Shown: positions 3,226 to 39,843 of the stretch, one piece after another
How the letters are laid out: every line of letters starts with the position of its first letter
Numbering within the stretch: the first letter of the stretch is position 1
Source: Chiloscyllium plagiosum
Taxonomy: Eukaryota
Length of the DNA: 44,274 nt
Reading direction: 5' to 3'
NCBI RefSeq assembly: GCF_004010195.1
Contig: NC_057714.1
Coordinates: 8,264,482-8,308,755, forward strand
Program-made: the position numbers and the translations under genes
Notes under the pieces: generated by a model
What the model was told of the DNA's origin: nothing
What the model saw: the letters and a program-made list of their open reading frames with translations, nothing else
Database searches by the model: none

Positions 3226-3331
3226 ATGTTGAAATATTTATACTTGAAATATTAAAGGAAGAGAACCTGACTAAGAAGGCAAAAGAAAAGAAAGATGCAT
3301 TATTGAGAAAACTTAACAGTATTAAAACAAG
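3226..3331 (+). CDS. SKAP2: SKAP2 internal coding exon (probable exon 2, 106 nt), N-terminal dimerisation domain
   Basis: Acceptor ttcatttgcag at 3215-3225 and donor AG|gtaatt. Translates (D)VEIFILEILKEENLTKKAKEKKDALLRKLNSIKT(S), matching recalled human SKAP2 DVETFVADILKGENLSKKAKEKRESLIKKIKDVKS. Phase 1 start, phase 2 end. Confidence 0.93.
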
Positions 3332-16130: not shown

Positions 16131-16502
16131 AGATCTTTGTGTCATTGTGCAGTAATTTGTCCATTAATGCTTTACTGGGGCAAACCTAGTGAGAAATCAA
16201 TAGTATTGGTTCACAGGCTACTCAAGCTAATGATCAGCATCAAAACCAGCCGTTGTCAAGCCAGCAACCTATTGATTTCTAAGTTTGAAGCAAGTGTGTT
16301 ATGGAAGAATTGTAAAACATCCAGACTACTTTTTTTTATATACCTCTCTATAATTAGTTAACAAGAAGAGCTAAGCCTGGGGATGGATTTGTATAAAGCA
16401 ATGGATATTAAAGGATTAATCTGAGCTAATCCTTTGGTTTGCCCACTCTGATAGATAAGATAGCCACTACGTGGAGTATTGGATGTTTTGGGCAAAAAAT
16501 GC

Positions 16503-17657: not shown

Positions 17658-17940
17658 GGCAGCTGGAGCCATTTTGGGCAGGTATCACTTGGAATCTTGC
17701 ATGGCTTTCAGATGGTAACGATGTCTTGCCTATTAAGAGATAATATACCCAAAAGTTACTGTAACCTGCGAATAGTTACTTAGATGTAATACTGCATCTT
17801 ATTATCGAAGATGAGAGCTTCTTTCACTAAGAATTACTCATGGTCCATCTTCCAGCACAGGTGTTGAGTAAATTCCTAGCCTAGCAAGGTAAGAAGGCTT
17901 GGTGGCAGTAGTGTGTCTCAATCACAAGTTATTGATGGCC

Positions 17941-18190
17941 ATGGTTTTCTGATTGGCGATCGGTGACCAGTGGTGCTCCACAGGGATCGGTGCTGGGACC
18001 CCTGTAATTTGTAATATATACAAATGATTTGGAGGAGTACAGAGGTAATTAGTAAGTTTGAGGATGACACAAAAGTTGGGGAGCTATGGATAGTGAAGAA
18101 GATTGCCAGAGGATACAGCTGGATATAAATAGGCTGGAAGCTCAGGCAGAGAAATGGCAGATACTGTTTAATCCAGACAAATGCAAGGTG
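17941..18190 (+). repeat. 250-bp inverted duplicate of 17252-17501 (CR1 RT segment)
   Basis: Ungapped reverse-complement match with about 7 mismatches by eye. ORFs 17126..17356(-) and 18086..18271(+) begin with the same 32 residues. Confidence 0.92.
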
Positions 18191-18495
18191 GGCGGCACGG
18201 TGGCACAGTGGTTAGCACTGCTGTCTCACAGCGCCAGAGACCCGGGTTCAATTCCCGCCTCAGGTGACTGACTGTGTGGAGTTTGCACGTTCTCCCCGTG
18301 TCTGCTTGGGTTTCCTCCGGGTGCCTCCCACAGTCTAAAGATGTGCAGGTCAGGTGAATTGGCCATGCTAAATTGCCCATAGTGTTAGGTAAGGGATAAA
18401 TGTAGGGGTACGGGTGGGTTGCGCTTCAGCGGGGCGGTGTGGACTTGTTGGACCGAAAGGCCTGTTTCCACACTAAGTAATCTAATCTAATCTAA
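18190..18495 (+). mobile_element. Full-length HE1-type V-SINE, young
   Basis: A box TGGCACAGTGG, B box GGTTCAATTCC, V-domain, CR1-like 3' end and taatctaatctaatctaa tail. Many CpGs retained. Confidence 0.93.
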
Positions 18496-18563
18496 TGTCC
18501 TCCTTGTATCCATGCAGGATGGAGGTGGCCAGCCCTTTGTGGGTGAGCTAAAACTTGAGTATT

Positions 18564-18695
18564 CAGAGGAACCTTGATTATCTGTCATTCGATTATTCGG
18601 CAAGATCCCGATGCTTGGCTAAACTATGTTATCTGGAATTCGATTAACTGCATGAAGTACCAGCCCGTGTCCTTCGGATAATTGAGGTTCCTCTG
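18564..18695. mobile_element. 132-bp Tc1/mariner (pogo/Tigger-like) MITE
   Basis: 21-bp terminal inverted repeats cagaggaaccttgattatctg / cggataattgaggttcctctg, with 3 mismatches all explained by CpG decay. TA follows the right end; the left flank reads TT. Confidence 0.75.
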
Positions 18696-19917
18696 TACTT
18701 GTAAAATACTGTTTATGTTAATGAGCTAATCGGCACAGGGTCAATAAGATTAAGCAGGTAAATGCATGGCTCAACAATTGGTGTGGCAGAAGTGGGTTTG
18801 ACACAACAGCACAGACACAAATAGGATAGTGTATGGAAAAAGTTAGCAATCAAACTTCAAGCACACTGGATAAATGAATGACAATGAGAAGAGGGACGGT
18901 TAATACAGGACTGAAATAGTAAATCTGATTGCATATAGTATAAAGGAATAAGGTAAATTAGCTTGTGGCGCAGATCGAAATTGGCAGAAGTAACATGGTG
19001 GGCATCACAGAGACATGGCTGCAAGGGGATCAGAATTGGGATCTGAATGAGCATCCTATCGAAAAGACAGTCAGGGTGGGTAGAGGGAGTGGGGTTACCT
19101 TAGTAAGAAATGAAATGAAATAAATTGTAAGAAATGAAGGAGGGTCAAATAGCATAGAATCTATATGGGTAGAATGGAGGAACCACAAAGGTAGTAAAAT
19201 CCATGGTTGGTGATATGTACAGGCATCCAAATAGTAGTCAGGCGCTGAGGCACAAGATACACTAGGAGATAGAAAAGATGTGTCAGAAAGGCAAAGTTGC
19301 AGTGATCATGGGAGATTTCAATATGCTGGTGGATTAGGAAAATCAGGTTGGTAGTGGATTGCAAGAAAAAAAATTTGTGGAATGTCTACAAGATGGCTTT
19401 TTGGAGCAGTTTGTGGTGGAGCCCACGAGGGAACTGGCAATACTGGTGTGTAATTAGGCAGACTTGATAAAGGTGCCTAAAGTGAAGGAACGCTTAAGAA
19501 CAGTAATCATAATATGTTTGAATTTACTCTGCAATTCGAGGGAGAAGATTTAGAATCGGAGGTAACAGTATTATAGCTGAATAAAGGCAACCACATGAGG
19601 TAGGAGCTGGGTAGAATTGACTGGGAGAGCAGCCTAACAGGAAAGAGTGAAACAGTAATGGCAGGAGTTTCTAGAAATAATTCAGAAGACACAACAGAGA
19701 CTCATTTTGAAGAAAAAAAAACATGGTACAGGGAGGATGAGGCATGATGGCTGACTAATGAAGTCAAGGATAGCATGAAAGCATATAATGTGGCAAAGGA
19801 CAGTGGAAATTAGAGGATTGGGAAGCTTACAAAGACTAACAGCTGACAACAAAAAAAAAGATAAGGAGGGAGAAGTTTAAAGATCCGTGTAAGGTAGACA
19901 GTAATATAAAGGAAGAC

Positions 19918-22900
19918 AAAGTTTTGAGAAGATTTGTAGCTCAGGTTGAGGTTCTGGATGTAAGTTTGCTTGCTGAGCTGGAAGGTTCATTTTCAAACAT
20001 GACGTCACCATACCAGGTAACATCATCAGTGAGCCTCCAGTGAAGCAATGGTGGTATGGCCCGCTTTTTATTTATATTTTTAGGTTTCCTCTGGTGATGT
20101 CATTTCCTGTGCTTTTTCTCAAGGGGTGGTAAATGGGATCCAAGTCAATGTGTTGTCTTTATTCCTGATGAAGGGCTTTTGCCCGAAACGTCTATTTCGC
20201 TGCTTCTTGGATGCTGCCTGAACTGCTGTGCATTTCCAGCACCACTAATCCAGCTTCTGGTTGAAATGCCACGCTTCTAGGAATTCTTGCACGTGTCTCT
20301 GTTTGGCTTGTCCTAGAATGGATGTGTTGTCCCAGTCGAAATGGTGTTCTTCCTCATCTGTATGCAAAGATACTAGTGATAGTGGGTCATGTCTTTTTGT
20401 GGCTAGTTGATGTTCCTGTATCCTGGTGGCTAGTTTTCTGCCTGTTTGTCCAATGTACTGTTTGTTAAAGTTTGTGCAAGGTATTTTGTAAATTACATTA
20501 GTTTTGCCTGTTGTCTGTGTAGAGTCTTTCAAGTTCATTAGCTACTGTTTTAGTGTGTTGTTAGGTTTGTGGGCTACCATAATGCCAAGAGGTCTGAGTA
20601 AGTCTCGCAGTCATTTCTGGGATGTCTTTGATTAAGGGGAGAATGTCAAGGGTTTCTGGATGTGTTCTGTCTGCTTGTTTGAGTTTGTTGCTGAGAAATC
20701 GGTGGAGTGTGTTCATTGAGTACCCGTTCTTTTTGAATACACTGTACAGGTGATTTTTCCCTGCTCTTCATAGTTCCTCTGTGCTGCGGTGTGTGGTGGC
20801 TCATTGAAATAATGTTCTAATGCAGCTTCATTTGTGGGTATTAGGATGATTACTTCTGTAGTTCAGTATTTGGTCCGTATGTTGTTTTCCTGTACTCACT
20901 GGTTTGAAGCTCCCCATTGGCTGTTCACACTACTGCAACATCTCGGAATGACAGTTTGGTGTTGTTTTCCTCCTCTTTAGTGAATTTTATGCCAGTAAGG
21001 GTATTATTGATGGCCTTGAAGGTTTCCTCTAATTTGTTTCGTTTAGTGATGAGGTGTCATCCACGTAGAGGACCCAAAGTTTTAATTGGATAGTTGGCAG
21101 AGCTGTTTGTTTGAGTCTCTGCATTACTGCCTCTGGTAAGAACCCTGATATTGGAGATCCCATGGGTGTTCGATTGGTTTGTCTGTATGTTTTGTTGTTG
21201 AAGGTGAACAAGGCCAATGTAGTTTGTTAATATTGTCCTTGCTGATGAAGTAGTTGGTGTTTGGTATGCGTCTTTGGGTATTCTAATCGTGTAATCAGCA
21301 GTTCTTTGGCTAGGTTGATATTGATGGATGTGAATAGGGCTGTTATGTCAAAGGAGACCATTATTTCATCCTCTTCTATGTTGGTGTCTTTGGTCTTCAG
21401 GAATTCCTGGGTGGAGTGATTGGGGTGGCGTGAGTCTTGTAAGTGTTTTAGTCTTTGTAGCTCCTTGGCTAATCTCTAAGTTGGTGTTCTAGGTAATGAG
21501 ACTATGGGTCTGGGGGGGTATCGGGAGTACTTCTGGTTTGTGAATTTTGGGTAATCTGTAGAAGCGTGGTATGTTACATCCACCTGGTTTCGTTTTTTGG
21601 AAGTCAGTCTTATTTATTTCTCCAGATTTCTGACATTTTTTGTTTTGGGCTGTGATTTGGTTTTCTAGTTGTGGGGTCAGGTCTATCCCCACTTGTTGGT
21701 AATTGTTGGTATCTGCAAGCAGTAAATTTGACTTTTCAATGTGGTCTCTTTGAATTAAAATGACTATCAAACATCCTTTGTCTGCAGATAGGGTAATAAT
21801 AACATTTTTTAGTCCTTCTAGTGCTTTTCTTTCTTGTATTGTGTATTTCCTTCCTTTTTCCTGCTTAATGTTGGTGTGACTGTCTGTCTGATACTTTGCT
21901 GGGTTTCTTTTGTGAGTTGTCTTTCAGTAATGTTTCTAATGTTGCTAAGAAATATTTCCTATGCACCCTGGAAGTTGTAATTTAACCCTCTTAATAAGAC
22001 AGCTTTTTCAGTGTCTGTTGAGGTCAGTCAGGTAGTTTTTTTTAATAATCCATGCTTCTGTGTTGTCTGTGCTTTTTCTTTGTAAGTTTTTTTCTGCAGG
22101 TCTAGATTTTTCATTTTCTGTGTTTGTCGCTGTCAAATGTCTATGGCTTGTTGTACTGTGTCTGTCCATTCATGGTCTGTTGCATTAGTGAGCAAAGTTT
22201 TTTTTTTTGCGTGAAATTTCCTAGTTGTATTTACGGAGTCTGTTGTGGGCATCATGAATCATTTCTCTAAGCATTCTGCGGCCGTTTTGCTCTGCTATTC
22301 TTTTGGCTAGTGGGATGTTCAGGGGAGGTTTGTATTTAAGATATTAGATAATACCTGTTTCCTTAGGCATTCGTGCAGGAAGTACAGCTGTTCATGGGTG
22401 GCGTTCTGTCAGATTGGTTTGCCATTTTCGGGCATCATGGTAGCCGACAAACCCACCAACACACTAAAACAGCAGCTAATGAACTTGAAAGACCCTATAC
22501 AGACAACAAGCAAAATGCTTTGTACAAACTCTAACAAACAGTACATTGGACAAACAGGTACAAACCTAGCCACCAGGATGCAGGAACATCGACTAGCCAC
22601 AAAAAGACATGACCCACTCTCACTAGCATCTTTACATACAGACGAGGAAGGACACCACTTCAACTGGGACAACACATCCATCCTAGGCCAAGCGAAACAG
22701 AGACATTTGCGAGAATTCCTAGAAGCATGGCACTCTAACCGGGACTCTGTCAACAAACACATTGACTTGGATTCCATTTACCCCATCCCCTGAGAAAAGG
22801 AACAGGAAATGACATCACCAACCCAAGTAAACCTAAACACATAAATAAAATGCGGGCCATACCACCAGTGCTTCACTGAAGGCTCACTGATGATGTTATC

Positions 22901-22964
22901 TAGTATGGTATCAAAACATCTGAAAACGAACCTTACACATGAGCGAGGAAACTTATATCCAGAA
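19918..22964 (-). mobile_element. Penelope-like retroelement (RT plus GIY-YIG endonuclease), decayed, with inverted copy of its 3' region at 22431-22964
   Basis: Minus strand: IPRFYRLPKIHKP, TPMGSPISG, YVDDT, NVIYKIPC..QYIGQTGRKLATRIQEH. The + strand ORF 22398..22793 repeats the GIY-YIG part. Arms are 19952-20586 and 22431-22964. Confidence 0.93.
20161..20196 (+). ncRNA. Minimal type I hammerhead ribozyme motif within a 98-bp Penelope-type terminal-repeat fragment (20156-20253)
   Basis: CTGATGA (20165) - A - GGGC TTTT GCCC stem II - GAAAC - GTC. Core identical to the 38.1-38.2 kb copies. Stem I is poor. Confidence 0.6.
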
Positions 22965-23566
22965 GATTATAAGAGTTTCTTCAGATATATAAAGGGCAAA
23001 AGAGAGGGAAAAGTGGATATTGGGTCATTGAAATATGATGCTGGAGTGATAGTAGTGGGGAACAAGGAAATGGCTGACGAAATGAATAATTACTTTGTGT
23101 CAGTCTTCACAGTGGAAGACTGTGAAATGTCAAAAATTCAAGAGAGTAAGGGGGCAGAGCTGAATATGATGGCTATCACCAAGGAGAAGTTGCTAGAAAA
23201 ACTGAATGGCCTGAAGGTGGATAAATCGCCTGGACCAGATGGACTACACCCCAGAGTTCTAAGGGAGATAGCTGAAGCAATAGTCAAGGCGTTAGTGGTG
23301 ATCTTTCAGGAATCGGTAGAATCGGACAGAGTCCCAGAGGACTGGAAAATTGCTATTGTGAAACTTCTATTTAAAAGGGAGTAAGGCAAAAGACAAAATT
23401 ATAGACCGATTAGCCTAACCTCAGTCATGGGCAGGATCCTAGACTCCATTGTGAAGGATGAGATCTTTGAATACTTGGAAGTGTATGGTAAAATAGGGCA
23501 AAGTCAGCATGGTTTCATCGAGGGGAGGTCATGCCTGACAAATCTGCTAGAATTCTTTGAGGAAGT

Positions 23567-24081
23567 TGGCCCACTTGGAATGTAATATTCAGTTCTGGTC
23601 ACCTCATTATAGGAAGTATGTGGAAGTTTTAGCGAGGGTGCAAAGGTGATTTACCAGAATGCTGCCTGGACTGAAGGGCATGTTTTATCTTGAAAGGTTG
23701 AGGGAGCTAAAGCTTTTCCCATTGGAGCAAAGAAGGGTGACAGGGGACTTGATAGAGATGTACAAGATGATAGGCTTTGATAGAGTGAACAGTCAGAGCC
23801 TTTTTTCCAGGGCAGAAGTGGTTATCATAAGGGCCATAATGATTAGCAGAGATGTCAGAGGTTGGCTCTTTCCACAGTGTGTGGTTGGTGCATGGAATGC
23901 ACTGCCAGCAGTGGTGGTAGAGTCCAATGCATTAGGGTCATTTAAGTTACTCTTGGATAGGCAAATGGATGATAGTGAAGCGTAGAGAATGTAAATTAGT
24001 TTGATCTACATGTTGGATACAAAGTCAGCACAACATCGAGGGCCAAAGGGCCTGTACTGTGCTGTACTGTTCTATGTTCTA
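23567..24081 (+). mobile_element. 5'-truncated CR1 of another subfamily nested in the host CR1
   Basis: Post-RT motifs (MLPGLKG...FPLEQRRVTGDLIEMYK), own 3' end gggccaaagggcctgtactgtgctgtactgttctatgttcta. Host frame EFFEEV|TS.LDQGEPLDV resumes after it. Confidence 0.85.
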
Positions 24082-24635
24082 ATTACAAGCAGTTTGGACC
24101 AAGGAGAGCCACTGGATGTTATCTACCTGGATTTCAAGAAAGCCTTTGACAAGGTGCTGCACAGGAGGCTACTGAGTAAGATAAGGATGCATGGTGTCAG
24201 CGGCAAAGTACTGACATGGATAGAAGCTTGGCTGTCTGGCAGAAGGAAGAGAGTGGGGACAAAAGTGTCATTCTCTGGATGGCAGCCAGTGCCAAATGGT
24301 GTTCCGCAAGGTTCAGTGTTGGACTTTATATACTAATGATCTAGATCAAGGAACTGAGGGCATTCTGGCTAAGTATGCAGATGATACAAAGATAGGTAGA
24401 GGGATAAGTATCGTTGAGGAGGCGGGGAGACTGCAGAAGGATTTGAGGGAGGGCAAAGAAGTGGCAGATGATGCACACCGTGGGAAAGTGTGAGGTCATT
24501 CACTTTGGTAGGAAGAATGGAGGCATGGACTATTTTCTGAATGGGAAATAATTCAGAAATCTGAAGTGCAAATAGACTTGGGCACTCTAATCCCAGTTTC
24601 TCTCCAGTAAACTTGCAGGGTGAGTCAATAGTTAG

Positions 24636-25037
24636 TGTTGAGAGTGTGGTGCTGGAAAGACACAGCAGGTCACGCAGCATCCGAGGAGCAGGAGAGACGG
24701 GGGGAAGAGGAGGAGGAGGAGGAGGAGGTAGCTGAGAATGCGATAAGTAGGTGAAGATGGGAGAGAAGGTGATAGGTCGGATAGGAAGGTGGAGCGGAGA
24801 GATGGGAAAGGCTATGGACAGGTCAAGAGGGCAGTGCCGACTCAGAGCCTTGAGACTGGGATAATGTGGGGGGAGGGGAAATCAGGAAATTGGTGAAATC
24901 CACATTAATTCCGTGTGGTTGCATGGTCACAAGGCTGAAGATGAGGCATTCTTTCTTCAGGAGTCGGGTAAGGCCTCCATCACCAAACCTTTACCACCCG
25001 ACTCCTGGAGGAAGAACACCTCATCTTCTGCCTTGGG
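24636..25037. mobile_element. Rearranged Penelope-like fragment nested in the CR1, includes (GGA)n at about 24707-24728
   Basis: Starts gtggtgctggaaagacacagcaggtcacgcagcatccgaggagcag, as in the 38089-38140 repeat. Contains an EEE(H/C)LIF(C/S)L segment on both strands, indicating an internal inversion. Confidence 0.65.
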
Positions 25038-25567
25038 ATGTACTTCTGAGGCCTATAAGGCTCTGGTCAGACCACAATTTGGAATATCTTTTACAGTTTT
25101 GGGCCCCTTATCTCAGGAAGGATGTACTGGCTCTGGAGTGTGTTCAGAGGAAGTTCATTAGAATGGTCTCAGGAATGAAAAGCTTAACATACGAGAGGCG
25201 TTTGAAGATTCTGGGTTTGTACTCGATGGAGTTTAGATGGATGAGGAGGATCTAATTGAAACATACAAAATACTGAATGGCCAAACAGAGTAGATGTTGG
25301 GAAAATGTTTCCATTGGTGGAGAGACTAGGACCCAAGGGCATCGCCTTAGAATAGCTTTAGAACAGAGATGGGTAGAAACTTCCTCAGCCAGGGAGTGGT
25401 CAATCTATGGAAATCATTGCCATAGAAGTTTGTGGAGGCCAGGTCATTGAGTGTATTTGACACTGAGATAGGTTCTTGATTGTTAAAAGGATCAAGAGTT
25501 ACGGGGAGAAAGCAGGAGAATGGGGGTGAGAAACTTATCAGCCATGATTGAATGGTGGAGCAGTCTT

Positions 25568-26010
25568 AGAGTCATAGATGTACAGCACAGAAACAGACCT
25601 TTTGGCCCAACTTCTCCATGCCGACCAAATATCCCAACCTAGTCTCGTCCCATTTGCCAACACTTAGCCCATATCCGTCTAAACCTTTCCTCTTCATATT
25701 CCCATCTAAATGCCTTTTAAACGTTGCAATTGTACCAGCCTCCACCACTTCCTCTTGCAGCTCATTCCATACACGCACCACCCTCTGTGTGAAAATGTTG
25801 CCCCTTAGATCCCTTTATATCTTTTCCCCCTCACCCTAAACTTATGCCCTCTTGTTTTGGATTCCCCCACCCAAGGGAAAAGACTTTGCCTATTTATCCT
25901 ATCCATGCTCCTCATGATTTTATAAACCTCTATAAGGTCACCCCTCAACCTTCGATGCTTCAGGGAAAACAGCCCCAGCCTATTCAGCCTTTCCTATAGC
26001 TCAAACTCTC
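25568..26010 (-). mobile_element. 5'-truncated CR1 (HER1-like) 3' end nested antisense in the host CR1 3' UTR
   Basis: Reverse complement closely matches 39400-39843. ORF VRVWNELQEEVVEAGTIATFKRHLD. Confidence 0.9.
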
Positions 26011-26074
26011 TGAATGGCCTAACTTCTGCTTCTCTGTCTAATGGTCTCATGGGATGCTGCAGCGTGTCAATTAT

Positions 26075-26430
26075 TGAAGAGAGATTTGACCATCTGAGGA
26101 GGTTTGCCATAGAACAGAGATTTAGAGGGACATGGTTGAGATATTTAAAATTGAGGGGCATAGTTAGGGTAGACAGGAAAAGACTTTTCCCTTTGTTGGA
26201 GTGTTCAGTGAACTGTGGACATAGATTTAAAGCAAGGTGCAGAAGACTTAGAAGAGATATGAGAAAAACCCTTTTACCCAGAGTGTGGTTGGAATCTGGA
26301 ACTCGCTGCCTGTAAGACAGAGATAGAAACTCTCATAACATTTAAGAAGTATTTAGATGTGCAGTTTTGATACTAAGGCATTCAAGGCTGGGCCATGTGC
26401 TGGAAAGTGAGATTAGAATACAGAGATAAT
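26075..26430 (+). mobile_element. Old CR1 3' fragment
   Basis: FAIEQRFRG..RVDRKRLFPL..GHRFK motifs and WNSLP. Confidence 0.7.
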
Positions 26431-27263
26431 ACAGCGATCCTGCTATAATTCATGTTTCTTCAATGCAAATTGACCTTAACGTGAATTTAGACAGTTATTT
26501 GTAGAACGCAAACTTTATTTACCTGTATTGGTTATAACATGATTCTGGCCCCATTAGTTTGTCACACAGCTAATGCGTGATTTTCTTATAAAGCGAGATA
26601 GTTCCATTCCTTTGCAATCACATTATATGAGAACCACCTGTATGTGGTGGTTTTTGACTGGCACAGAAGCAATGGGCTGAAGGACCATTTCCTGTGCTGT
26701 AGATGTCTGAATCAATGGTGACTGAAATCATGTAATACATGTAGGTATGCTTTTGTTAAGCTTTGAACTTGTTTCTTACCAGCATAGCATTTGCTACTGT
26801 TGGATCCTGGTGTTGCAGTCATTTCTGATGGTTACATACAGATGTAGATTTGCTTTTCCCTAAACTGTACCAACTTTATTTAATCTACTGCGGGAGAGAA
26901 TAATTGGAGAAAACACATCATGGGAGATGATACATTTTCAAAGTAACCTAGAAAATAAATATCAATGTAAAGGTGTATTTATGTAAATGTGCATCTCAGT
27001 TTAATCTTAGTATGAAGCACCATTGTTAACTCTATTATTTAGACTAGCACTAGAATCAAGTGTGTGAGACTTCATTCTATCTCTGGCAAGTCTGTAACTT
27101 TAGATTCGTGCAATGTAACATAAACTACCTTTAATTAGATCCTTTTTCATATTCACTATTAAGTAGGGAAAACTATTTCTGTAAGTTTGTACTTGTGTCC
27201 TCTGTTTCTGCATTCAATTTAAAGCAACCTACATGCCTGTGAAGGCATTACGCAGGTTGATCG

Positions 27264-27578
27264 CATAGAATCATAGAAACCTTACAGTGTGGGAAGAGAC
27301 TGCAATCCAAAGAGTAACCCACCCAAAACCAGCACCACCCCCCCCAGCCCCCGCCCCACCACCACACCTTCCCCGTAACCCTACATTTACCATGGCCAAT
27401 CCACCTAGCCTACACATCTTTGGAATGTGGGAGGAAACCACAGGAACACCCAGCAGAAACTCCTGCAGACAAGGGGAGAACTCGAAAATTCCACACAGAC
27501 GGTCACTAAGGCTGGGATCCAGCCCAGGCCCTTGGAACTGTGAGACGACAGTGTCAACCACTGAGGCACCATGCCGCC
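27264..27578 (-). mobile_element. HE1-type V-SINE, older
   Basis: catagaatcatagaa tail, V-domain (cacatctttggaatgtgggaggaaacc) and degenerate tRNA head. Confidence 0.85.
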
Positions 27579-28557
27579 ACATGTCCTTTTAATTTTCTCT
27601 CCGACAAAAATACATTTAATATTTCATTGAGCTCCCAAATAATGGAAATTACCTCCTTGTCTGAAAACTCTCTTGGTGTCATTTTTGAAGATAGGCTCTG
27701 CAAATTTCTTGTTTTTGCAATATGTTTGGAGAAGTTTTGTTTGAATATTTTCAAAATTCACTTTTCACTGTAAATCGTGTTGATTATTAGTTTTGGGGAT
27801 GAGATGGGTGTGGGAAGTTGATTTAGGACCTTGCCTGGCAAAGGGGGCCTTACAATTCTGTGAACCTGCCCTCATTTAAATTTGGCAGGCAAGCTGTAAG
27901 GTGCTAAACTTTGTCAGAAAGACAAGTGTTGTAGAGGCAGGGGTCACAGCTGCCGAGTTGAAGAATCAGAAATAATATTTGAACGCTTATCTTTAGTAAC
28001 TTCTCTGCCTTGTCATCCACGGAACTTGCATGGCACACAGTCTGACCTAACATGCCAATCTGAGTTGTATTTATGTCAAGGACCCTAATTTGCATGTTAG
28101 CGTGGACTACCAACCTGTAACAGTCAGGCGATTTAGACACCCAGTGGCATATGTCTTTCTAAATTGTTCCATTTTGTTTGCATGCAAATAGGACAGTTAG
28201 AAAACTGCCTCAAAACAAGTTCTGTAGCATCCCATTTAGGGCAGGAAAGGACGGCAAAATTGTATTCTGTTTCTTTCTATGTTTTATTCTTTGCAGTTGA
28301 AATTAGTAGCTACTGGGCAACAAATGCAACCTGTCACATTTTAAGAACAAATTCAGTAGAAAGGATTGCTATTTGCCTAATGAGAGTGTGCACAAGTATT
28401 GCTCTTAACTCCTTATTTGCCTTCATGAAATAAATCTGCTATATCGATTAATTTTAATGTTACACTAAATTGAATTTTATCAAATATTAATGAACAATTC
28501 TCCTGTGCATATTAACACAGAATGTTAACTATGCTTAAATTTTTAATTATTTTGTAG

Positions 28558-28656
28558 GAGGATCGGATGATTCTGACAGCTGTGAAGAACCTGTGGAAGA
28601 TAGTATTTCACTAGCATCTGAACGTTGTGATAATCATGAAGAATCTGCAGCTGATG
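28558..28656 (+). CDS. SKAP2: SKAP2 internal coding exon (probable exon 4, 99 nt), acidic linker before the PH domain
   Basis: Acceptor ttttaattattttgtag, donor G|gtatgt. Reads (G)GSDDSDSCEEPVEDSISLASERCDNHEESAAD(G) versus human GDAEDGEEYDDPFAGPPDTISLASERYDKDDEAPSDG. The ISLASER motif is diagnostic for SKAP2. Confidence 0.92.
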
Positions 28657-29251
28657 GTATGTGTTATTGTAGATCTTTGTACGATCTGCTATTGACAGTC
28701 AGTGAAAAATGGGACTCCAGTTTGAAGAAGTTCCTGAGGAAACCGAATAAGCTAACAATTTTAAAGTGCAATTGAATTGGCTCCCTGTTGGAAGGCAGCT
28801 ATGTGGAATTGAAGAGCTCTCTCTAGTGGTATTCAAGGTTTATACAACCGAGAAAAATAGTTGCATTGCAAAAACGTAAGAACTTGGTCTTGATATGAAC
28901 CTCCGGATCAAATGCACTTTTCAAGCTTGGACAATATCAGTTGTTAAAAAGTAAAAAGTTTAATTTGTAATGCATATTTCTTTCTATTAGGCTGGAACAT
29001 TACAAAAATTAGCACTGAGAATGCAGTTTGTAGTTTCAGAAGTGTTGTGTACCCTAATTGAGAAAATTCAGACTTAGAAATTACACTGTATATTAAATCA
29101 TTGACAGTATCTTTCTTTAAATAAGCAGCCATTCTACACAGTAGGGATTAATTGATTAAGACAGATCCTTCACACAACAAAAAATTTATTAAGGCAGTTC
29201 AATTATAATGCAAGGCTACATCGCAGACCACATTTTGTTGAGAGATATGAT

Positions 29252-29618
29252 ATCATAGAATCATAGAATCCCTATGGTGTGGAAACAGATCACTTGCCCT
29301 GTTGAATCTACACCCACCCCCCTGAAGAATATTCCACACAGACCCAACCCCCTAACCTATTGCTGTATTCCTGCATTTCATGGCTAATCCACTTCGCCTG
29401 CACATCCCTGGATACTATGGGAAATTTTAGCATGGCCACTCCAGCTAACCTGCACATCTTTGGACTGCAGGAGGAAACTGGAACACCTGGAGGAAACCCA
29501 CGTAGACACAGGAATAGTGTATAAACCCCACACCGACAGACGCCCAAGGCTGGAATTGATTCCAGATACCTGTCATTGTGAGGCAGCAGTGCAAACCACT
29601 GAACCACTGTGCTGCCCC
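29252..29618 (-). mobile_element. HE1-type V-SINE, older
   Basis: (ATCATAGA)n tail, V-domain and tRNA head ggggcagcacagtggttcagtggtttgcactgctgcctcaca on the minus strand. Confidence 0.88.
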
Positions 29619-30702
29619 ATGTTATGATTTTCATTGAATTACTCCAGAAATATTTTACTCTATTATTAAGACTAGCATATTCCATCTTAACCAGTGTGCA
29701 AATCTTGCAAGCTAAACATGCAGATTACTGAAAAATGACATTAAACTGAATAAATATTTTAATATATCCAATAATACTGTTTTACATAGTAATATAACTG
29801 GTATTTTGTATAATTGGAAAGCTTGCTAGGGACTCATAGTTAAATAAAGCAAACAATGATGTTGCAACTTAATAATTTACTTTGGTTACAGATATCACAG
29901 ACTACATATACAACTGTCCCTATCCTACAGTTTATTTTGTATCAGTTGCTGATCCCTGACTCTCATTTCTTAAATTAAAATTAAATGTGGAGTTACAGTA
30001 TCCCTTCCACAGAATATTTTATTCAGTAAAGATTGCTTTTTCAAAGAATACGTAAACTAAAGAAAAATAAACCTTAAGAAAGTACTGTATTTTAAATTGA
30101 GATGTTTAGTCTTTTTGGGATGAGTTACAGAAATAAAGCATGTCTCTCAGAAATCAGTTGGATAGTAGCATTTTAGCAATTCATTGCTATGTTTGTCTAA
30201 TGTGTTTCCTAAGTTTTCACAGTTGTAAGTAGCTGAATATATTTATCTAGTTCAGTTTAGGGCTAACAATAATTAATAATTTTATTTGTTGCCAAGACTT
30301 CAGTGCAAGTTAGTTTTCCTCATTCTCCTCCCCCTAATATTACCTTAAATATAGATGTTGCAATTTTATTGATTTTGAAATTTCCTGTTGTCAACATTAC
30401 AATACTGACCAGAAGTGTATTTTTAAAATTAAACTTAAATTGCAGCCTATAATTTTATACATAGTTTGAAAATTGCTTGAACTTTATACTGAATGTTTCA
30501 AATGAAGAAGATTATAAGATCTTCAGCAAAGATTACACTTGATTCAAAATAAAAGCTCGTAATTCATAGTTAGTTGCAATTGAACATGATCTTTATTCTT
30601 GTTTATAAAATCTGTAGTTCTTGCTGACTTGAAACATTTAGTAGGATTATGCTTTTGTGAGGAATAGCCATCATAAATGTAAATTAATGCTAATATATTA
30701 GT

Positions 30703-31865
30703 TTCATAGGGCATGGAAACAGACCCTTCAGTCCAATTAGTCCATGCCAAACATATTCCCAACCTAAACGAGTCCCACTTGCCTACATTTGGCTCATATC
30801 CCTCCAAACCCTTCCTATTCATGTACTTATCCAAATGTCTTAAAATTGTGCAATTGTACCTGCATCTACCACTTCCTGTGATAGCTCATTCCACATATGA
30901 ACCACTCGGTGTAAAAGTGTTGCCCCTGATTCTTTTTAAAGCTTTCTCCTTTTGCTTTAAAAACCATGGCCCCTAGTTTTGAACTCCCACACTTTAGGGA
31001 AAAGATCCTTGCTATTCACCTTATCAATGCCTCTCGTGACTTTTATAAACATCTTTAAGGTCACCCCTCAACCTCTATGCTCCAGTGATAAAAATCCCAG
31101 CCTATCTTTATAAGTCAAACCCTCCAATCTTGGAAACATTCTGGTAAATCATTTCTGAACCGTACCCAGTTTAATAATATCCTTCCTATAGGAGGGTGAG
31201 CAGAACTGTACACCATAATCCAGAAGAAGCTTCACCATTATCCTGTACAACCTCAACATAATGTACCAACTCCTTTACTCAAAGGTCTGAACAATGAAGG
31301 CAAGCACGCTAAATGCTGCCTTAACTACCCTGCCTACCTGTGATGCAAATTACAAAGAATTATGTACCTGAACCCCTAGATCCCTCTGTACTACACCACC
31401 ACCTATGGCCTTCCCATTCCATTGTGCAAGTCCTCCCTTTCTTTGTTTTATGAAAATGCAACACTTCACATTTAACCAAACTATCCTCCCTCTGCCACTT
31501 CCACTGACCCAAATGATCAAGGTTTTTTTTGTCATCTTAGAAAACCCTTCTTTACTGTCCACTATACAACCTTGGTGTAATCCACAAACTTACTAACCAT
31601 ACCTCCTGAATTCTCACCCAAATTGTTTTTATAAATGACAAACAGAAGTGGACCCAGTATTGATCCCTGCTGATCACAGGCCTCCAGACTGAAATGCAAC
31701 CCTCCACCACCATCCTCTGTCTCCTATCATCAAGCCAATTTTGTATCCAGTTGGCAAACTCACACTGAAACCCATGTGATCTAACTTACTAATTAGTCAA
31801 CCATGTGAAACCTTGTCAAAGGTTTTACTAAAGTCCATGTAAACAATGTCTACCGCTCTGCATCA
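30703..31865 (-). mobile_element. CR1 LINE 3' ~1.15 kb, decayed
   Basis: YMDFSKTFDKVSH, QRDLGVQVHNSL and 3' end similar to 39700-39843. Confidence 0.9.
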
Positions 31866-33034
31866 ATCCTCAAAAACCGCAATCGACTGCTTTTGTGTTC
31901 CAACTGTGTATGAACCAACAATTGAAATATAGGCCCCTAATCTGAATGAAAGTGCATATGTTGAATTAAAGTTTCTGTCTGCTCGTAATGCTCAAAATAT
32001 GATATTCAGTTGTGTGCATCATAATATTAGATGCATATGGGCTTGGTCTCTTCCTAACTGATTCATTTCACATAACCAACCTGCTGCGAATGTGTATTTC
32101 AATAGCATATCTGCATTTTCCACGATTCTCCAATGTAAACTTTAAATAAGTAAGGATTCATGTACAAATGTTCATAAAATCTTCCTGAGGAGTTGCATTT
32201 AAACAAGATATAGCAGAAGCAAAACTGCACACAAATTGATCAACTTCTAATTTTCATTTCTGTTTGTGTCTATTACTTTGTTGTATTCTTTGATGTAATG
32301 GTTATTTTACATAGAAAGTAACACCACAAAGTTTTTATTATTTGTAGCCATGTGAGGCACTTAACAATAGAACTACAATTTTTTTTTGTCACAACATTCT
32401 GCTTTAAAATTCTAAAGTCGAGATGATAACCGAATGCAACCAGTAAAATTAGGTGTGTGGGTCTGATGCTCAACTTTAAACCTACTCGAAATCCAAACCA
32501 TGATGACTTGTGCAAATAATTGATTTTGCAAATAGTGTACAAACCAGTGTGTCTGTTCTTCTTGTCGGAAGGCTTGGTCACTTTCAGCTATTTAATGTTG
32601 AATTTAAAAGTGTTACTGTGGAACAAAGAAATTATGTTCTTTACTACATAGGGAGTCTATAAAGATTTGTATATCCTTTGCTCTGAAATGCAATTCGCAC
32701 CACTATACATTCTGTGATCGCTCTTGAACCTATGACATTGATTTCAGTGCAGGCATTGTATCTGGTTTATTGTGATGGTCATTGAAAAGAAGCTAGATAT
32801 ATTTCAAACATTGAAAAAGAAATCTAGCTATGGACTGAACTCTAACTTTGTACAAACATCTATTTGTGTTTAGCTCATATTTATTATCTTCAAATATAGT
32901 GCTAGTTTATTTTAGATGGAATGGTCAAATTTGTAGCAGTTTCGTATCCTTAATATAAATTTAGGGTGGAGATAAAAGACTACGATCTTTTCATCCTCTG
33001 ATATTTTGTGTTCAAAAAAGAAGGAATAAACTTG

Positions 33035-34260
33035 GTAACCACAGGCCAATGCTGGGAAAACTATAAAGGCTATAAGCACAAAATTAATTCTCACTTGGAA
33101 AAGTGTAAATTAATACAGGACAGCCAGCATGGATTTGTTGACTGTAACTCATCTTTGACTAGCCTAATATGTGTACTCTGAAGTAATAGCGAGGATTGAT
33201 AAAGATAGTGTTGTGGTTGTAGATCTGACGTTTCAAAAGGCATTTGACAATGTGTCAAGTAGCAGATTTATTTGAAAAATGGCAGTATCATGTGATGGTA
33301 AGTGCACTTGCCATGTGATAACTTGAATGTTAACTTGCTAAAGCATAGAAGGTAATAGTAAGCATGTGTTCTGACTGGTGAAATGTACATAATGCGGTCC
33401 CCCAAAGGTGATATTAGGATCATTGAATTTGAATTTGAGTATAGACAGTACAATTTAGAGGTTTGGCAATGTAGCAATTAGTTAAAAAGATAGATGTCAA
33501 AGAAAATAGACTTGTAGAATGAGCAGGCATGGGGCAGATGCAATTTAATCTGGCTATGTGAAATGGAGAAAGATCGTGAGAAGGCATTGTATTGTACATG
33601 GTACGATTTTGAAAGGGGTGCAGGAGCAGAGGGATCTGGAACACGCATTCACAATTCCTTTACAAATCATCAGTAAATTCAAAGTTGGAGTTTTGTACAA
33701 TTCTGGATGCCAGTCTTTGGTAGGATGCTAATTCCTTGGAGTGAATACAGAGACGATTCGAGGATGATTCTATTCTGTAAGTGTTTTCCCTGAAAGCAGC
33801 TCCTTGTCTCGTCTGCTGATGCTTCAGGCAGGGGGATGATACAATGAATGAAAGAATTCAGTTAAGTAGAAAGATTACTTTCCTCAGAGCAGTTAAGGTC
33901 TGGCCTTGTATTCAAGTTTACTAGATGAGGCTTTTTGATAGAGCAGGTAGGGAAGAAAATGTTTCCTATGGAAATTGTCAGTAACCAAAGGTCATAAAAT
34001 TAAAATTATTACCAAAAGTGGTAAAGGTGAAATGCAAATTCTCTTAAGGTAATTGATAAAACCTGACATGTATGACCTGAAAGTGTGGTGGAATCAGATT
34101 CCGTAATAACTTGCAAAAGACAATTAGACCTACATTTGAAGGGGACTAATTTTACATGATTATGGGGATAAGGCTGAATTGAATACCTCTTTCAAAGATC
34201 CCACAAAGGCATAACAGATGAAATAGTATATTTCTCTAGTGTTAGTCTATCATTCTATTT
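33035..34260 (+). mobile_element. Old CR1 RT to 3' UTR remnant
   Basis: SQHGFV, FQKAFD, PQ-like and EQRDLG-like remnants in the correct order, heavily mutated. Confidence 0.65.
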
Positions 34261-37200
34261 ATTGATGTGGAAATGATCAAATTAATACATATAAATCTAT
34301 ATTTTTAAAAACTTACGATGTTGTAAGTGGCAATATGTTTTAAAATGTTTCTGGATAATGAACTACTCCTAACTGGAGTAGGGTAAGTAATTTTGAGCAT
34401 GTGTTAGTACTTCAGCATTATGGACTAATCTCTATATTTTGCCAGCATTTATATGGGGAACAATGACAATTCCAGACATGCCTCTGAAATGGTAGTCTGT
34501 TGATGAAAACTTGCATATGGGGATAATCTAAAGATTGGTTTTGAAGGTTTTAGGTGATGCTGCTATGACTGTTACCTTTGGCATCTTGTTCTGTTGTGGA
34601 ATTATCCTTGGAAACTTTCTTTTCTGGTTAGAAACATACATGAATATAGCAGTGACAAACAAAGCGCTGAAGAAACGCAGCATGTTTGGCAATGTATGTG
34701 GCAGAGATACAGTGTTAATGTTTCTGGTCTGTCGTGGCTGTTCTTTAGAACAAAAAGGTCTTCAAAAATGATTTTTTTATGCAATTGATAATGCAGGAGA
34801 AGGAGTGAGTAAAACAAACATCGAGGGTGCTTAGACCAAAAGGCAAAGAGGTTGCCAGTGGTGGTGAAGGAAGATTTGTTAATGGTGGTAAAGGAGAGAG
34901 AAGTGAAAGATATTCTTCAATGCAATCACCAAGTCTGTGTTTGGTCTTGTCAATATAAAAGAGGGTGCTTTTGTGTGCAATGACTACAGTAGTCTAATTT
35001 GAAAGAAACGCATGTACAATATGGTTATTAAAAGATAAAATATACTTATGTAGACAATGTCAGAGTGAAGTCTGAAATGTTCAGGCTTATTCAAGAGACT
35101 ATTTTTGTCTTTGGTTTTTGAATCCGAGCTAGCTGGTCCTTAATTTTGTAACTTAGTTAAAACCAAATGATATTTTAACTGTTGAATTTAACCCGTACAA
35201 ATATAATACAAATACTTTTAGTAAACATTCAGCTGACTGCTGCAATGCCATTTAAAGTAAAAGCAGATATTGGTCTTTAAATGTATGGTTTCCAGTTTCA
35301 TAATTAGAATATTTTAGCTCCATTGCAATTTTAAAAAAAAAATCCTTCATAAATAATTTCACAATGGTGCATTTCTATCTTGTATTAATGCTGAGAAATA
35401 GAACTGCAAATAACCACACATGACAGCTACCAAATATGGACATAATTTATTATCTCCAATTATCAGGATCTCTTCTGGTCAACTTGTAAATATACTGAAA
35501 ATGGCACCTATAGTTTAAATTTCCTTTGGATCCTGGATGATCATTCTAATGCTTACTAAAGGAAAATAATAGTTACATTTGTACTGTATTGAAGATCTGC
35601 TAAAGCATCAAATTTCTGCAACTTTGTATTTGTGACCAAGATTGAACATGCCTGAGTCAATTATGAGGAAGGTCTGTGGCACTTCTTTTGCATTTCCACC
35701 TCCTAACTATGTATAGCCTTCATCCCAGACACACAACACTATAGTTTGCATCATAACTCTATTCAAATTGTAGCAATTTAAATGCTAAATCATGTTACCT
35801 AATATGATATTTTTATGGCCTCCATTCACCACCTGGATTCTCTCTCTTCCTCTCCTCTCTCTCACATACATATATTCTCCCATTTGGGATTTAGCAGTTT
35901 AAGCATTGCCTTGATCAAAACCTTGAAGCATAACTGTACACTCCATTGCTTTTACATCTGAGATGAGTATAAATTTGTAGAATGCTAGTACCCAAGACAT
36001 ATTACCTGTAATTTCTAATATAGTTACTTGTCTATGTGCATCTATTCAAAATGTAGTATTTGTTTCCATCCCTATGGATGAGACATGAAAGACATTTGTG
36101 CTTCTCGAATTGTTCTATTTGTAAAGGGCACCACCTAGTTCCTCCCCCCAGGTATTTGGAAGCATATATTAATAGCTCAATTAGGTTGAGGTCACATGAA
36201 GAGCTTTATACAAATCAAATTATGTAAGATCTGTACATTCGCCCTTTAATATAGCTCAGCATTCAGACAAAATATTGTAGCTTTATAAATTATAAACTTC
36301 TCAAGCAATAGATTATTTTTGATATGTTGATATTATTTTTGAGGTACTGTGAAGGTCAAAAACTTACTCCCGTTTTGTTCTCTTTATTTCTGTGTCTGGT
36401 TTTCTCTTTCAATCTTTGTCTGAGTCTTTCTAGTTCAAAAGTTCACTCAATTCCCAAATGACCACCTAATTTTCTAGTTATTCCCTCAAGCCATATGTGT
36501 TTGGGTTTCTTTATGGTTTATTAGGTACTGTAGGAAAGAAACATCCGTTATATCTTCTAATGTAATTCACACACACTTCACTGGCACTTCTTCTCTTGAT
36601 TGCTGGCAGCAATTAAATCACAGCAAAGGAGGGTAATACATGGACTCCCTAGCCTATGCTCCCCTACAGAAACTGACAAAGCCTAAAAAATAAATGCCAG
36701 GCTCTCCGTTACCAATCTGCCTTTTGGCTGGCCGCAAGCTTGATTGATTGTGAAATCATAACTTGCTCCTTGCTAACAGGGAGAGTTCACTGGTAGGTTA
36801 TTGTGAGCAGATAAAGCACTGGATGAGGTTTTGATTTTTCTGTATCGAATCTGGGTACATCAGATTAATGGAATTTCAATTACAGCTTGGAATTGCCACA
36901 GCTTTGTCAGGAAAACTGATGGAGATTCTATAGCCATGTCTACTAGCTAATACCAGATGCAAAAAAGGTGTGCTCTTCTATTAGGCCAAACAGCAAAGAC
37001 CGATTGTAATTGGATTGTTTTTAAACTTATTGATGTCTGTATTTTTGTCCTTTTTTAAAATCTTTTCACCTCTTCAGACAGCTCTTCTATTAGATTTGAC
37101 AGTACAGTAATGGTTTTGAGTTTATGAATCTGTATTGAGTTGAACGTTTTCTTTTTGACTTTACTCATACCAGAGCTAATTGTTTCTATTCAACAAGTAT

Positions 37201-38142
37201 ACACTATTGATGCTTTTTGTGGATCAGTTTTCAGATTTTGTACTGAAAAAGAATTGTGAAGTGATTAATCATTGAGATTTTCACAGAATAAGATAATGAG
37301 CACATTATTCACATGAGAATTAATGGTTTATCAATCTATTTTGATATCGCATCATGTCTTTTATTGTCTTTCCTATGGAAACCTGAGATTTTTAATGTCA
37401 ATTTACTTTAGTATCACCTTGGATATTTTGCATTGTTTACTAAGTAGTTGTGAAATTAATCATATTTGCTGAGTGAAACATTGAAAACTTTTTTTCCAGA
37501 ATAAGGATCAGTATAAGAAATTATTATTGGCAGTATGTATAATTAATGTTATACATTATATTATAATGGGAACAATCAATGCTATGGCATATTGTGATTT
37601 GATATTTCTATAATATTAAATAGGAATGAATAGCTATCTAGAAATAATTACAGGGGTGTAATCTAATTGAAGCTTAGATTATGTTTTAAATTTCAGTGGC
37701 AAGCTTGAGTAGTTTTTAACCACTATATTGGAGCTAATATCACAAAGATCTTGATATAATACCCTAGAGCCACTTTGCATTAAATATTTTAAGGAATTCT
37801 TTGCAGGAGCTTTGTTCTGTTTAGCTCATGTTAATCTATGGTATAGAATTGTTGTGCTGTGCACATAATGTTCATACACAATATTAACTATCCTGATAGT
37901 GTTGCAAATAAAATATAGCTGATGACTTTAATTCAATGTTCATTCCATAGTTTTATATTAGCACGCAGAATTTCTCACAAGCAGCTCAAAGTATATTAAA
38001 TGATAAAACTCGAATGTAATTTGTAAAGTGTCAAAAGGTTGACACTTGCATTTTTTCAATGATTGATATAATGGCATCTGCGTTTTTGGATTAGTGGTGC
38101 TGGAAGAGCACAGCAGTTCAGGCAGCATCCGAGGAGCAGCAA

Positions 38143-38178
38143 AATCGACGTTTCGGGCAAAAGCCCTTCATCAGGAAT
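38143..38178 (-). ncRNA. Minimal type I hammerhead ribozyme motif (antisense copy)
   Basis: Minus strand reads attcCTGATGAagggcttttgcccGAAACGTCgatt. Confidence 0.68.
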
Positions 38179-38182
38179 GCAT

Positions 38183-38218
38183 ATGCCTGATGAAGGGCTT
38201 TTGCCCGAAACGTCGATT
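38183..38218 (+). ncRNA. Minimal type I hammerhead ribozyme motif (sense to SKAP2)
   Basis: CTGATGA (38187-38193), stem II GGGC-TTTT-GCCC, GAAAC, GTC triplet (38212-38214). The self-complementary ACGT stem III is typical of Penelope-associated dimeric hammerheads. Stem I is weak. Confidence 0.68.
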
Positions 38219-38969
38219 TTGCTGCTCCTCGGATGCTGCCTGAACTGCTGTGCTCTTCCAGCACCACTAATCCAAAATCTGGTTTACAGCATCTGCAGTC
38301 ATTGTTTTAACCTATAATGGCATCTGCGACCCGCTGAAAAGGCCCAAACTTTAACTGCCCATGAAATGAATAGTATTTAAGAAATTAATATACAGATATA
38401 ATTATTTAGGTTCTAAAGGAAGTTCAACCACTTGCATTTTTGTTTCCATAATTGGTGTTATCTGCATACTTTATCTTTTTGAAGTTTCACCTACCTATAA
38501 GTCATCCACTATATAAACTAAAATTTTCAGCAGTTTTGGACTGCATCCCTTGAATATGCTTTAAGCATTTACAATTGTGCACACAATATGCTTGTACAAT
38601 AACTATTGTGTAGCTAACAATTTACAGAAGTTGTACTTGCAGTTATGGTGCTAAATTACATTTTTGGATTCATAAATTGCACACCTGCATGTTTTTGCCC
38701 ATGAAACCCTGTAAAAAGATGCAAAAATTTTACAGACATCTGACACTTCAAAACTAGATTATTTCTAATAGTACTTTTCCCAGCTGACCATTTTGAACAA
38801 GGAAGAGAGAAAAGGTAGATGATTGTTTACATGCTCCAGACTAAAAGATTCTGTATGATAGCAATGCATGTACATTTGATAGTTAGTTTCAAAGGGCAAG
38901 GAAGTGTAGGACTGCCTTATTTACTTTAATCTTAGCACTGCGATACTGCCAGTGTTCAAGAGCTGAAAA

Positions 38970-39843
38970 TTGACAGCGAATAGGGTTACCTCAGATTACA
39001 ACAGGATCTGGACCAAATGGGACAATGGGCTGAGAAGTGGCAGATGGAGTTTAATTCAGATAAATGTGAGGTGCTGCATTTTGGGAAAGCAAATCTTAGC
39101 AGGACTTATACACTTAATGGTAAGATCCTGGGGAGTGTTGCTGAACAAAGAGACCTTGGAGTGCATGTTCATAGTTCCTTGAAAATAGAGGCGCAGGTAG
39201 ATAGGATAGTGAAGAAGGCATTTGGTGTGCTTTCTTTTATCGGTCAGGGTATTGAGTACAGGAATTGCGGCTGTATGGGACATTGGTTAGGCCACTGTTG
39301 GAATATTGCATGCAATTCTGGTCTCCTTCCTATCGGAAAGATGTTGTGAAACTTGAAAGGGTTCAGAAAAGATTTACAAAGATGTTGCCAGGGTTGGAGG
39401 ATTTGAGCTATAGGGAGAGGCTGAACAGGTTGGGGCTGTTTTCCCTGGAGCGTCGGAGGCTGAGGGGTGACCTTATAGAGGTTTACAAAATTGAGGGGCA
39501 TGGATAGGATAAATAGACAAAGTCTTTCCCCTGGGATCAGGGAGTCCAGAACTAGAGGGCATAGGTTTAGGGTGAGAGGGGAAAGATATAAAAGAGACCT
39601 AAGGGGCAACCTTTTCACGCAGAGGGTGGTACGTGTGTGGAATGAGCGGTCAGAGGAAGTGGTGGAGGCTGGTACAATTGCAACATTTAAGAGGCATTTG
39701 GATGGCTATATGAATAAGACGGGTTTGGAGGGATATGGGCCGGGTGCTGGCAGGTGGGACTAGATTGGGTTGGGATATCTGGTCGGCGTGGACGGGTTGG
39801 ACCGAAGGGTGTGTTTCCATGCTGTACATCTCTATGACTCTAT
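38970..39843 (+). mobile_element. Young 5'-truncated CR1 (HER1-like) LINE
   Basis: [60 protein letters not shown] with few frameshifts. Tail ctctatgactctat. Confidence 0.93.

Follow-up and report, generated by a model that had tools for sequence, protein, structure and literature searches.

How did a nearly perfect palindrome with a hammerhead motif on each strand come to lie within the 44,274-nt stretch of DNA analysed here (the window), and is it a young ribozyme-bearing element, a switch in its host gene or the debris of a larger retrotransposon? We conclude with high confidence that it is what remains of a Neptune-type, endonuclease-bearing Penelope-like retrotransposon (PLE), inserted in extremely 5'-truncated form and now dead, probably in an intron of SKAP2.

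Anatomy of the insert

The insert comprises 230 nt (38083-38312) between two identical 16-bp TSD copies, and is organized as follows.

38067..38082, strand not applicable: left TSD, 16 bp, TATAATGGCATCTGCG, an exact direct repeat of 38313-38328
38084..38178, minus strand: left arm, the PLE 3' end in inverted orientation and lacking the tail; left junction found in X1, X5 and X12 contigs
38179..38182, strand not applicable: fold-back centre GCAT, equivalent to the 10-nt loop 38176-38185 when only perfect pairs are counted
38183..38277, plus strand: right arm, a sense copy of the PLE 3' end, cut ~5 nt upstream of the hammerhead core
38278..38312, plus strand: 35-nt PLE tail, present at one end only; family sequence, with contig depth still high there
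38313..38328, strand not applicable: right TSD, an exact repeat of the left TSD; right junction found in X1, X5 and X12 contigs

An exact 16-bp repeat has a chance probability of ~6e-6 over 100 × 100 positions. The arms are fully complementary over 92 bp (38084-38175 and 38186-38277) around the 10-nt loop AATGCATATG, and stretch to 95 bp with a 4-nt centre if one mismatch, A38176 against G38185, is allowed. A single surplus unpaired T (38083) lies outside the left arm, and the short palindromes ATGCAT and GCATATGC can be read at the fold-back centre. The orientation of the right arm was taken from a relative at 24646-24969 and from protein P0009, both described below. The insert folds with an energy of -196.2 kcal/mol (z = -27), a stability equalled by none of 200 shuffles. 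The interior (38112-38279) rests on the assembly only and is spanned by none of the listed contigs.

An earlier, sequence-only reading of this DNA had described the 230-bp insert, the exact 16-bp TSD, the 92-bp arms, the 10-nt loop, the 35-nt tail and the intact CpGs, of which there are eight, and all of these hold. It had also called the palindrome perfect, which is true of the 92-bp arms and fails in the 95-bp arms at A38176/G38185. Because other copies of the family carry T at position 38185 (75 contigs in run X1 and the window copy at 20160-20262), the palindrome is probably not strictly perfect, and the mismatch is likely to have arisen when T changed to G near the centre. The claim that the insert lacks coding sequence stands as well: the longest open frame on its plus strand, over the right arm, runs for 42 codons with no sign of coding, and an RT-EN ORF of its own is absent. 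Inverted terminal repeats do not occupy both ends, as the tail lies beyond the right arm. A search of 37000-39500 against Rfam (E up to 10) gave 15 matches, all below the gathering score; no microRNA precursor reached Rfam gathering, and the best, MIR904, scored 51.7 of 80 bits owing to the hairpin alone.

The parent element

The insert is in all likelihood the last ~130 nt of a Neptune-type PLE, judging from homology that runs through a related subfamily. Three further PLE-derived features in the window bear on this origin.

24646..25038, minus strand: older relative with a GIY-YIG ORF end (24826-24969), a pyrimidine-rich 3' UTR and a related 3' end; hammerhead core missing
20160..20262, plus strand: another copy of the insert's family with 90% identity, a single arm with no inverted copy, nested in another decayed PLE
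19917-22964, minus strand: decayed PLE of another family with RT-like and GIY-YIG remnants (Pfam GIY-YIG, E 2.5e-04)

The older relative matches the insert family at 89% over 46 nt (24646-24691), and its ORF end shares 60-64% identity with the C-terminus of the shark proteins P0008 and P0009. A word-indexed protein search with this 48-residue ORF end found nothing among three candidates, whereas an exhaustive search with the same query gave six matches, two of which are shark PLE ends; the other four (P0002, P0003, P0006 and P0007; long, multi-stretch or no-stretch) were left out. With one shark PLE protein as the query, 15 proteins were recovered among 78 candidates; whale shark and zebra shark are the sources of related proteins. 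In P0008, Pfam detects GIY-YIG at E 8.6e-05, which passes the curated cut-off, and RVT_1 at E 9.3e-05, which falls short of it; the protein also contains YIDD and has a CxxxxCxxC linker at residue 318. A CX2-5CxxC linker between RT and EN is a Neptune/Nematis feature (PMC8557442); the pattern is unmatched in the P0009 linker. P0009 reads on through its 3' UTR, and its last 14 residues match the insert's hammerhead frame at 8 of 14 positions, with an alignment score of 47 that was reached in none of 5000 shuffles. Pfam assigned no family to the 48-residue peptide or to P0004 and P0005, and Atlas suggested GIY-YIG (score 0.93, 46% of members), which counts as no more than a lead.

A parent with an RT and with GIY-YIG at its C-terminus is therefore reached indirectly, by way of P0008, P0009 and the relative in the window, and the Penelope origin proposed from sequence alone is borne out by the homology to the two shark proteins. 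The probable Neptune label draws on the linker motif and homology, and pattern scans of metagenome, viral and prokaryote collections showed no full-length DNA copy of the insert's own subfamily. The link depends on a related subfamily together with a single match of 14 residues, which counts against the assignment, as do a TSD longer than the 8-10 bp of rotifer elements and arms that are nearer perfect than flank divergence predicts. No shark-specific description turned up among the papers listed for Penelope elements and sharks, and the family may already be catalogued in Repbase or Dfam.

The anatomy is that of an endonuclease-bearing (EN+) PLE insertion. Such insertions show a high rate of 5' truncation and often have an adjacent inverted 5'-truncated copy and a 30-40-bp tail (PMC8557442), and the insert has the adjacent inverted truncated copy, a 35-nt tail and a TSD. 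In rotifers, PLEs have inverted pLTRs, 8-10-bp TSDs, a 31-bp tail and head-to-head palindromic junctions that were interpreted as self-priming (PMC3846280), and an inverted pLTR with a 3' extension is described again in PMC8969392. The tail has been explained as the stretch between two internal RT start sites, with both strands of the target nicked (PMC11167929). The earlier suggestion of an extreme truncation product, one of two that had been offered, thus agrees with what remains here: ~130 nt of a PLE 3' end bearing the published signature of inverted copy and tail.

A sequence of events can be proposed for this structure. The GIY-YIG domain would nick the two strands 16 bp apart, as the TSD suggests. 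The RT would then start at a putative distal start site, which yields the tail, and copy ~130 nt of pLTR RNA until synthesis halts a short way upstream of the hammerhead core. The end so formed may fold back or switch template via short self-complementary bases, and the arm would be copied again up to the proximal site, giving the inverted tail-less arm. The homology to RT- and GIY-YIG-bearing elements, the anatomy, the varied fold-back points and the presence of the insertion in two organisms are observed, the last two being taken up below, whereas the nicking, the start sites and the fold-back itself are inferred.

The head-to-head layout recurs in two further PLE insertions of the window. 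The older relative has its own inverted copy (24996-25038), with 43-nt arms, six mismatches and a 26-nt spacer, and this fold-back (24927-25038) falls inside its ORF end. The decayed PLE has an inverted copy of its 3' end of ~500 bp (22431-22964), different hammerhead-like cores at 20029 (minus) and 22887 (plus) and what looks like a 35-nt tail, confined to one end. The whole element lies within a LINE fragment, which we take to be CR1-like. At 20155-20262 the second copy of the insert's family replaces ~20 bp of this host PLE, with no clear TSD, and its family sequence begins ~8 nt upstream of the hammerhead core. Other repeats of the window include an older, short piece akin to the family's 3' end (14212-14253, 79% over 42 nt), a 250-bp inverted repeat in LINE-like DNA (17252-17501 and 17941-18190, 97% complementary, 439 nt apart) and a 70-bp direct duplication (2401-2470 and 2571-2640, 98.6% identical).

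Host gene and RNA

The host gene is identified by one exon.

3227..3331, plus strand: SKAP2 exon (dimerization domain) with AG/GT ends; phmmer match of 3228-3329 to PDB 1u5e_A, E 1.7e-05

Because this exon lies on the plus strand, we take plus as the host sense strand. The insert is probably intronic in SKAP2, with its tail-bearing arm in the host sense. A second exon-like stretch with AG/GT ends (28559-28656) presumably resembles SKAP2; a comparison of it with PDB did not confirm SKAP2, and a search of the window with SKAP2 motifs gave no convincing PH or SH3 exon. The position and strand of the exon at 3227-3331 support the earlier expectation of a long hairpin if the intron is transcribed, and such a hairpin would be a plausible ADAR/Dicer substrate.

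In a poly(A) single-cell RNA run, of which ~2% was read, 1,527 of 12,955,460 records fall on the repeat; the same subset has no records on the unique flanks and no pile-up of starts or ends on the repeat, an outcome that weighs neither way on expression or cleavage at this locus. A>G and T>C changes account for 44 of 123 listed places in RNA, compared with 14 of 72 (X1) and 17 of 75 (X5) in DNA. This excess (P 0.023 against X1 and 0.058 against X5) is a property of the family rather than of the locus, and the RNA and DNA come from different individuals and were counted under different rules. It is a weak hint of RNA editing at the family level.

Age of the insertion and similarity of its arms

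Four of 24 listed public sequencing runs were mapped onto 37750-38650: the DNA runs X1 (organism A), X5 (organism A, another sample and study) and X12 (organism B), and the RNA run. Each of the three DNA runs has both junctions at this site, in contigs that pass from unique flank through the TSD into 25-33 letters of the insert at both ends. Five of the six junction contigs reach 25-29 letters inside, under a 31-letter bridging rule, and the right junction in X1 reaches 33; the inside letters agree with the insert and not with the far flank. No empty site occurs among the best 15 of 463 joints, which leaves some room for presence/absence polymorphism. The flanks in organism B differ at 26-30 of 671 sites and carry a 12-bp insertion (3.9-4.5%). 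The insertion is therefore older than the split between A and B, because the two share it at the same site, and the earlier description of it as young has to be abandoned. With the pedigree mutation rate of 7e-10 per generation reported for the epaulette shark (PMC10587355), its age would come to roughly 10-30 million generations, a figure to be taken as a coarse scale. The result is also a warning: where a shark genome mutates slowly, an insertion is not shown to be young by perfect arms, an exact TSD and intact CpGs.

If each lineage has changed by ~2%, the arms are expected to carry 3.7-4.3 mismatches; they carry one in 95 bp. This deficit has P 0.075-0.12, or 0.02-0.07 if CpGs mutate three to five times faster, and possibly reflects chance, arm-to-arm repair or assembly smoothing of the unspanned interior. 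It raises an alternative to simple decay, in which the insert has the same origin and its hairpin has been kept near-perfect by arm conversion or template switching, or by selection as an intronic dsRNA that acts on SKAP2 and serves as an ADAR/Dicer substrate. Stems are repairable by template switching (PMC8794818), and the insertion has this one mismatch although it is shared with organism B, across flanks that have diverged by 3.9-4.5%. All eight CpGs are intact, a minority base (A38275, G in ~90% of family depth) is mirrored in both arms while the single-copy tail holds two minority bases in 35, and the family-level excess of A>G and T>C in RNA counts in its favour. On the other side, the deficit is borderline, the mirrored base may stem from the source element, and the arm interior is unverified by reads, so that polishing could have evened the arms. 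The arms of the relative at 24927-25038 have decayed, with six mismatches in 43, and the portion of the RNA run that was read (~2%) has no reads on the unique flanks. We consider it quite unlikely that this hairpin was maintained, and prefer a truncated insertion without such upkeep.

The broader proposition, that arm-to-arm conversion actively keeps head-to-head PLE stubs in sharks near-perfect long after insertion, is rather unlikely. If true, this locus stayed a ~95-bp hairpin through a species split, and thousands of long-lived intronic dsRNA hairpins would feed ADAR/Dicer as possible seeds of small-RNA genes; the stub junctions would be a large natural record of PLE RT stopping and folding back at the hammerhead.

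Family copies and arm-to-arm junctions

The insert belongs to a very high-copy family: 46,155-53,040 contig pieces per DNA run fall on 37750-38650, nearly all on the insert. The question is then whether the palindrome itself is the unit that multiplies, as one branch of the sequence-only reading would have it; here this would be a fixed, non-autonomous mini-element transcribed as a unit and mobilized in trans by a Neptune RT/GIY-YIG. Such an element should recur with the same centre and ends in many dispersed copies, which is not what the best 15 of 463 joints show. All 15 leave the left arm and resume in the right arm or the tail, and their junction points all differ, one pair being mirror images. 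In X1, depth at the centre (38180-38184) is 16,000-36,000 against 1.5-5.4 million in the arms (~1%), and contigs that cross the centre contain gaps or other letters. Other structures are seen as well in the single-arm copy at 20160 and in the relative at 24646-25038.

What speaks for a fixed unit is that many copies end near the 5' edge of the hammerhead, with loose ends at 38176-38179 (115-350 records per position in X1), although these ends are partly forced because the reference leaves family sequence there. Some junctions may also be multicopy. One joint, 38111 → 38240 (mirror 38121 → 38250), has two letters between its ends and a depth of 307-1039 in all three DNA runs, 30-70 times that of unique DNA (5-18); it is possibly an amplified fixed palindrome common to organisms A and B, or contig-depth inflation. 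Taken together, a fixed mini-element is very unlikely to account for this insert. The idea of a self-propagating palindromic family falls with the variation among the best 15 of 463 joints and with the fold-back of the relative inside its ORF end, and varied inversion points, which the sequence-only reading had itself named as evidence against a family, are seen in both the public contigs and the relatives in the window.

We assembled 17 distinct joints (the best 15 of 463 and two more), dropped four that are clipped at the reference edge 38178 and merged one mirror pair. In the remaining 12 the inner arm ends lie 8.6 nt apart on average while spanning ~58 nt, compared with 24.3 nt under a uniform null (P 1.3e-4; permutation P 0.006), a correlation that is lost when the four clipped joints are included (P 0.17). 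The joint ends lean towards fold-back, in a small and depth-selected sample, and library fold-back chimeras could mimic some of them. A single stub is of minor importance, since PLE stubs of this kind are very numerous and their architecture is published. Taken together, the stubs form a data set for how PLE inverted copies arise, by self-priming on one template or from two cDNAs begun at both nicks, and for whether short near-perfect vertebrate palindromes decay or undergo arm-to-arm repair.

It is highly improbable that mis-assembly created the palindrome or made its arms identical. None of the listed contigs spans the insert, five of six junction contigs extend only 25-29 letters into it, and PLE inversions are known to trouble assemblies (PMC8557442); nevertheless, both junctions occur in inverted orientation in long flank contigs, in each of three runs that come from three studies and cover two organisms, and an exact 16-bp TSD is unexpected from mis-assembly.

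The hammerhead core

Both arms carry the motif CUGAUGA-A-GGGC/UUUUU/GCCC-GAAAC-GUC, with C17 on the plus strand at 38214.

38187..38214, plus strand: core of a minimal type I hammerhead, predicted to cut after C38214; two of the four innermost helix I pairs kept
38147..38174, minus strand: minimal hammerhead core; three of the four innermost helix I pairs kept

The earlier identification of a minimal type I core on each strand was upheld when both were parsed, as was the predicted plus-strand cut site at 38214. The CUGANGA, GAAA and UH elements are present, with G10.1-C11.1 closing helix II and a palindromic 15.2-16.2, and neither the catalytic core nor the ACGU dimer palindrome is damaged. 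Because helix I falls short of 4-5 bp on either strand, we refer to a hammerhead core and not to a complete ribozyme. The Rfam check that had been proposed did not recover it: hammerhead families are absent among the 15 matches to 37000-39500 at E up to 10. Exact pattern scans of metagenome, viral and prokaryote collections for the core gave no loci.

Forcing the core and helix II to form is predicted to cost 36-37 kcal/mol in the full or nascent hairpin and 3-5 kcal/mol in a lone arm, and the antisense arm is transcribed ahead of the core whichever strand is read. Since the pair is head-to-head, no second sense copy is available. The ribozyme is probably off and its motif locked shut in the folded transcript, because a dimer-type motif is present as a monomer, helix I is damaged, the antisense arm comes first and the opening cost is ~36 kcal/mol. 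In published work, a single minimal motif did not cleave and multimers were weak (PMC4209133), and eight of nine Xenopus dimer elements failed to cleave (bioRxiv 10.64898/2026.07.22.740005). An anole PLE hammerhead does cleave given PLE protein and is dispensable for insertion in vitro (PMC11167929). We regard the core, very probably, as a passenger of the truncated insertion that would stay paired with its antisense copy in host pre-mRNA. That SKAP2 pre-mRNA holds an active ribozyme, whether self-cleaving or switchable, is extremely improbable: the intact core and ACGU palindrome and the protein-assisted anole precedent favour it, but each transcript holds one sense copy with a damaged helix I, behind an antisense arm and a 36-37 kcal/mol barrier, and neither the single motif of PMC4209133 nor most of the Xenopus dimers cleaved. 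Of the self-silencing switch that had been envisaged, only the sequestration is left, as no ON state was found.

Two of 24 joint ends fall exactly at 38215, the first base past the predicted cut (P 0.06, not significant). A genome-wide pile-up of ends at 38215, if present, would indicate cleavage in vivo. Among the joints, 38133 → 38215 and 38146 → 38192 are both well supported and have an arm end at the base following the predicted cut. Past the cut, GCCTGAA (38238-38244) could apparently pair over 7 bp with family sequence upstream of the core, as read from the loose ends behind 38178, and this pairing is a possible distal helix I that would have been lost from the truncated copy.

Comparison with known systems

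The insert resembles non-LTR retrozymes (PMC7229834; bioRxiv 10.64898/2026.07.22.740005) in being short, non-coding, hammerhead-bearing and pLTR-related, with a TSD of more than 4 bp. Retrozymes, as those sources describe them, are head-to-tail tandems with canonical hammerheads that form circles, whereas the insert is head-to-head with one minimal motif per strand. We considered this class for the insert and rejected it for want of a head-to-tail tandem.

The motif itself is like the minimal hammerheads of metazoan PLEs (PMC4209133), which occur in pLTRs mostly solo, with some on opposite strands 100-700 bp apart. It shares with them the CUGAUGA/GAAA/GUC core, the extra base between 9 and 10.1, G10.1-C11.1, the palindromic 15.2-16.2, the lack of a loop 3 and the solo or opposite-strand occurrence. 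Helix II is 4 bp here compared with 7-8 in Schistosoma, and helix I is weak or broken here. In the Anolis Poseidon element PAc (PMC11167929), two RT start sites ~110-120 nt beyond the hammerhead explain the tail; here the tail ends 126 nt from the first base of the core, a similar spacing. PAc belongs to a different PLE clade and its ORF begins within the hammerhead; in the insert, the ATG frame is closed after 17 codons.

With the complex insertions of EN+ PLEs, as presented in PMC8557442 and PMC3846280, the insert differs in that only ~130 nt of the pLTR is left, the arms are nearly equal in length and the TSD is 16 bp, as against 8-10 bp in the rotifer examples (PMC3846280). It has in common with them the head-to-head copy, the tail at one end, the TSD, the 5' truncation and the palindromes at the junction.
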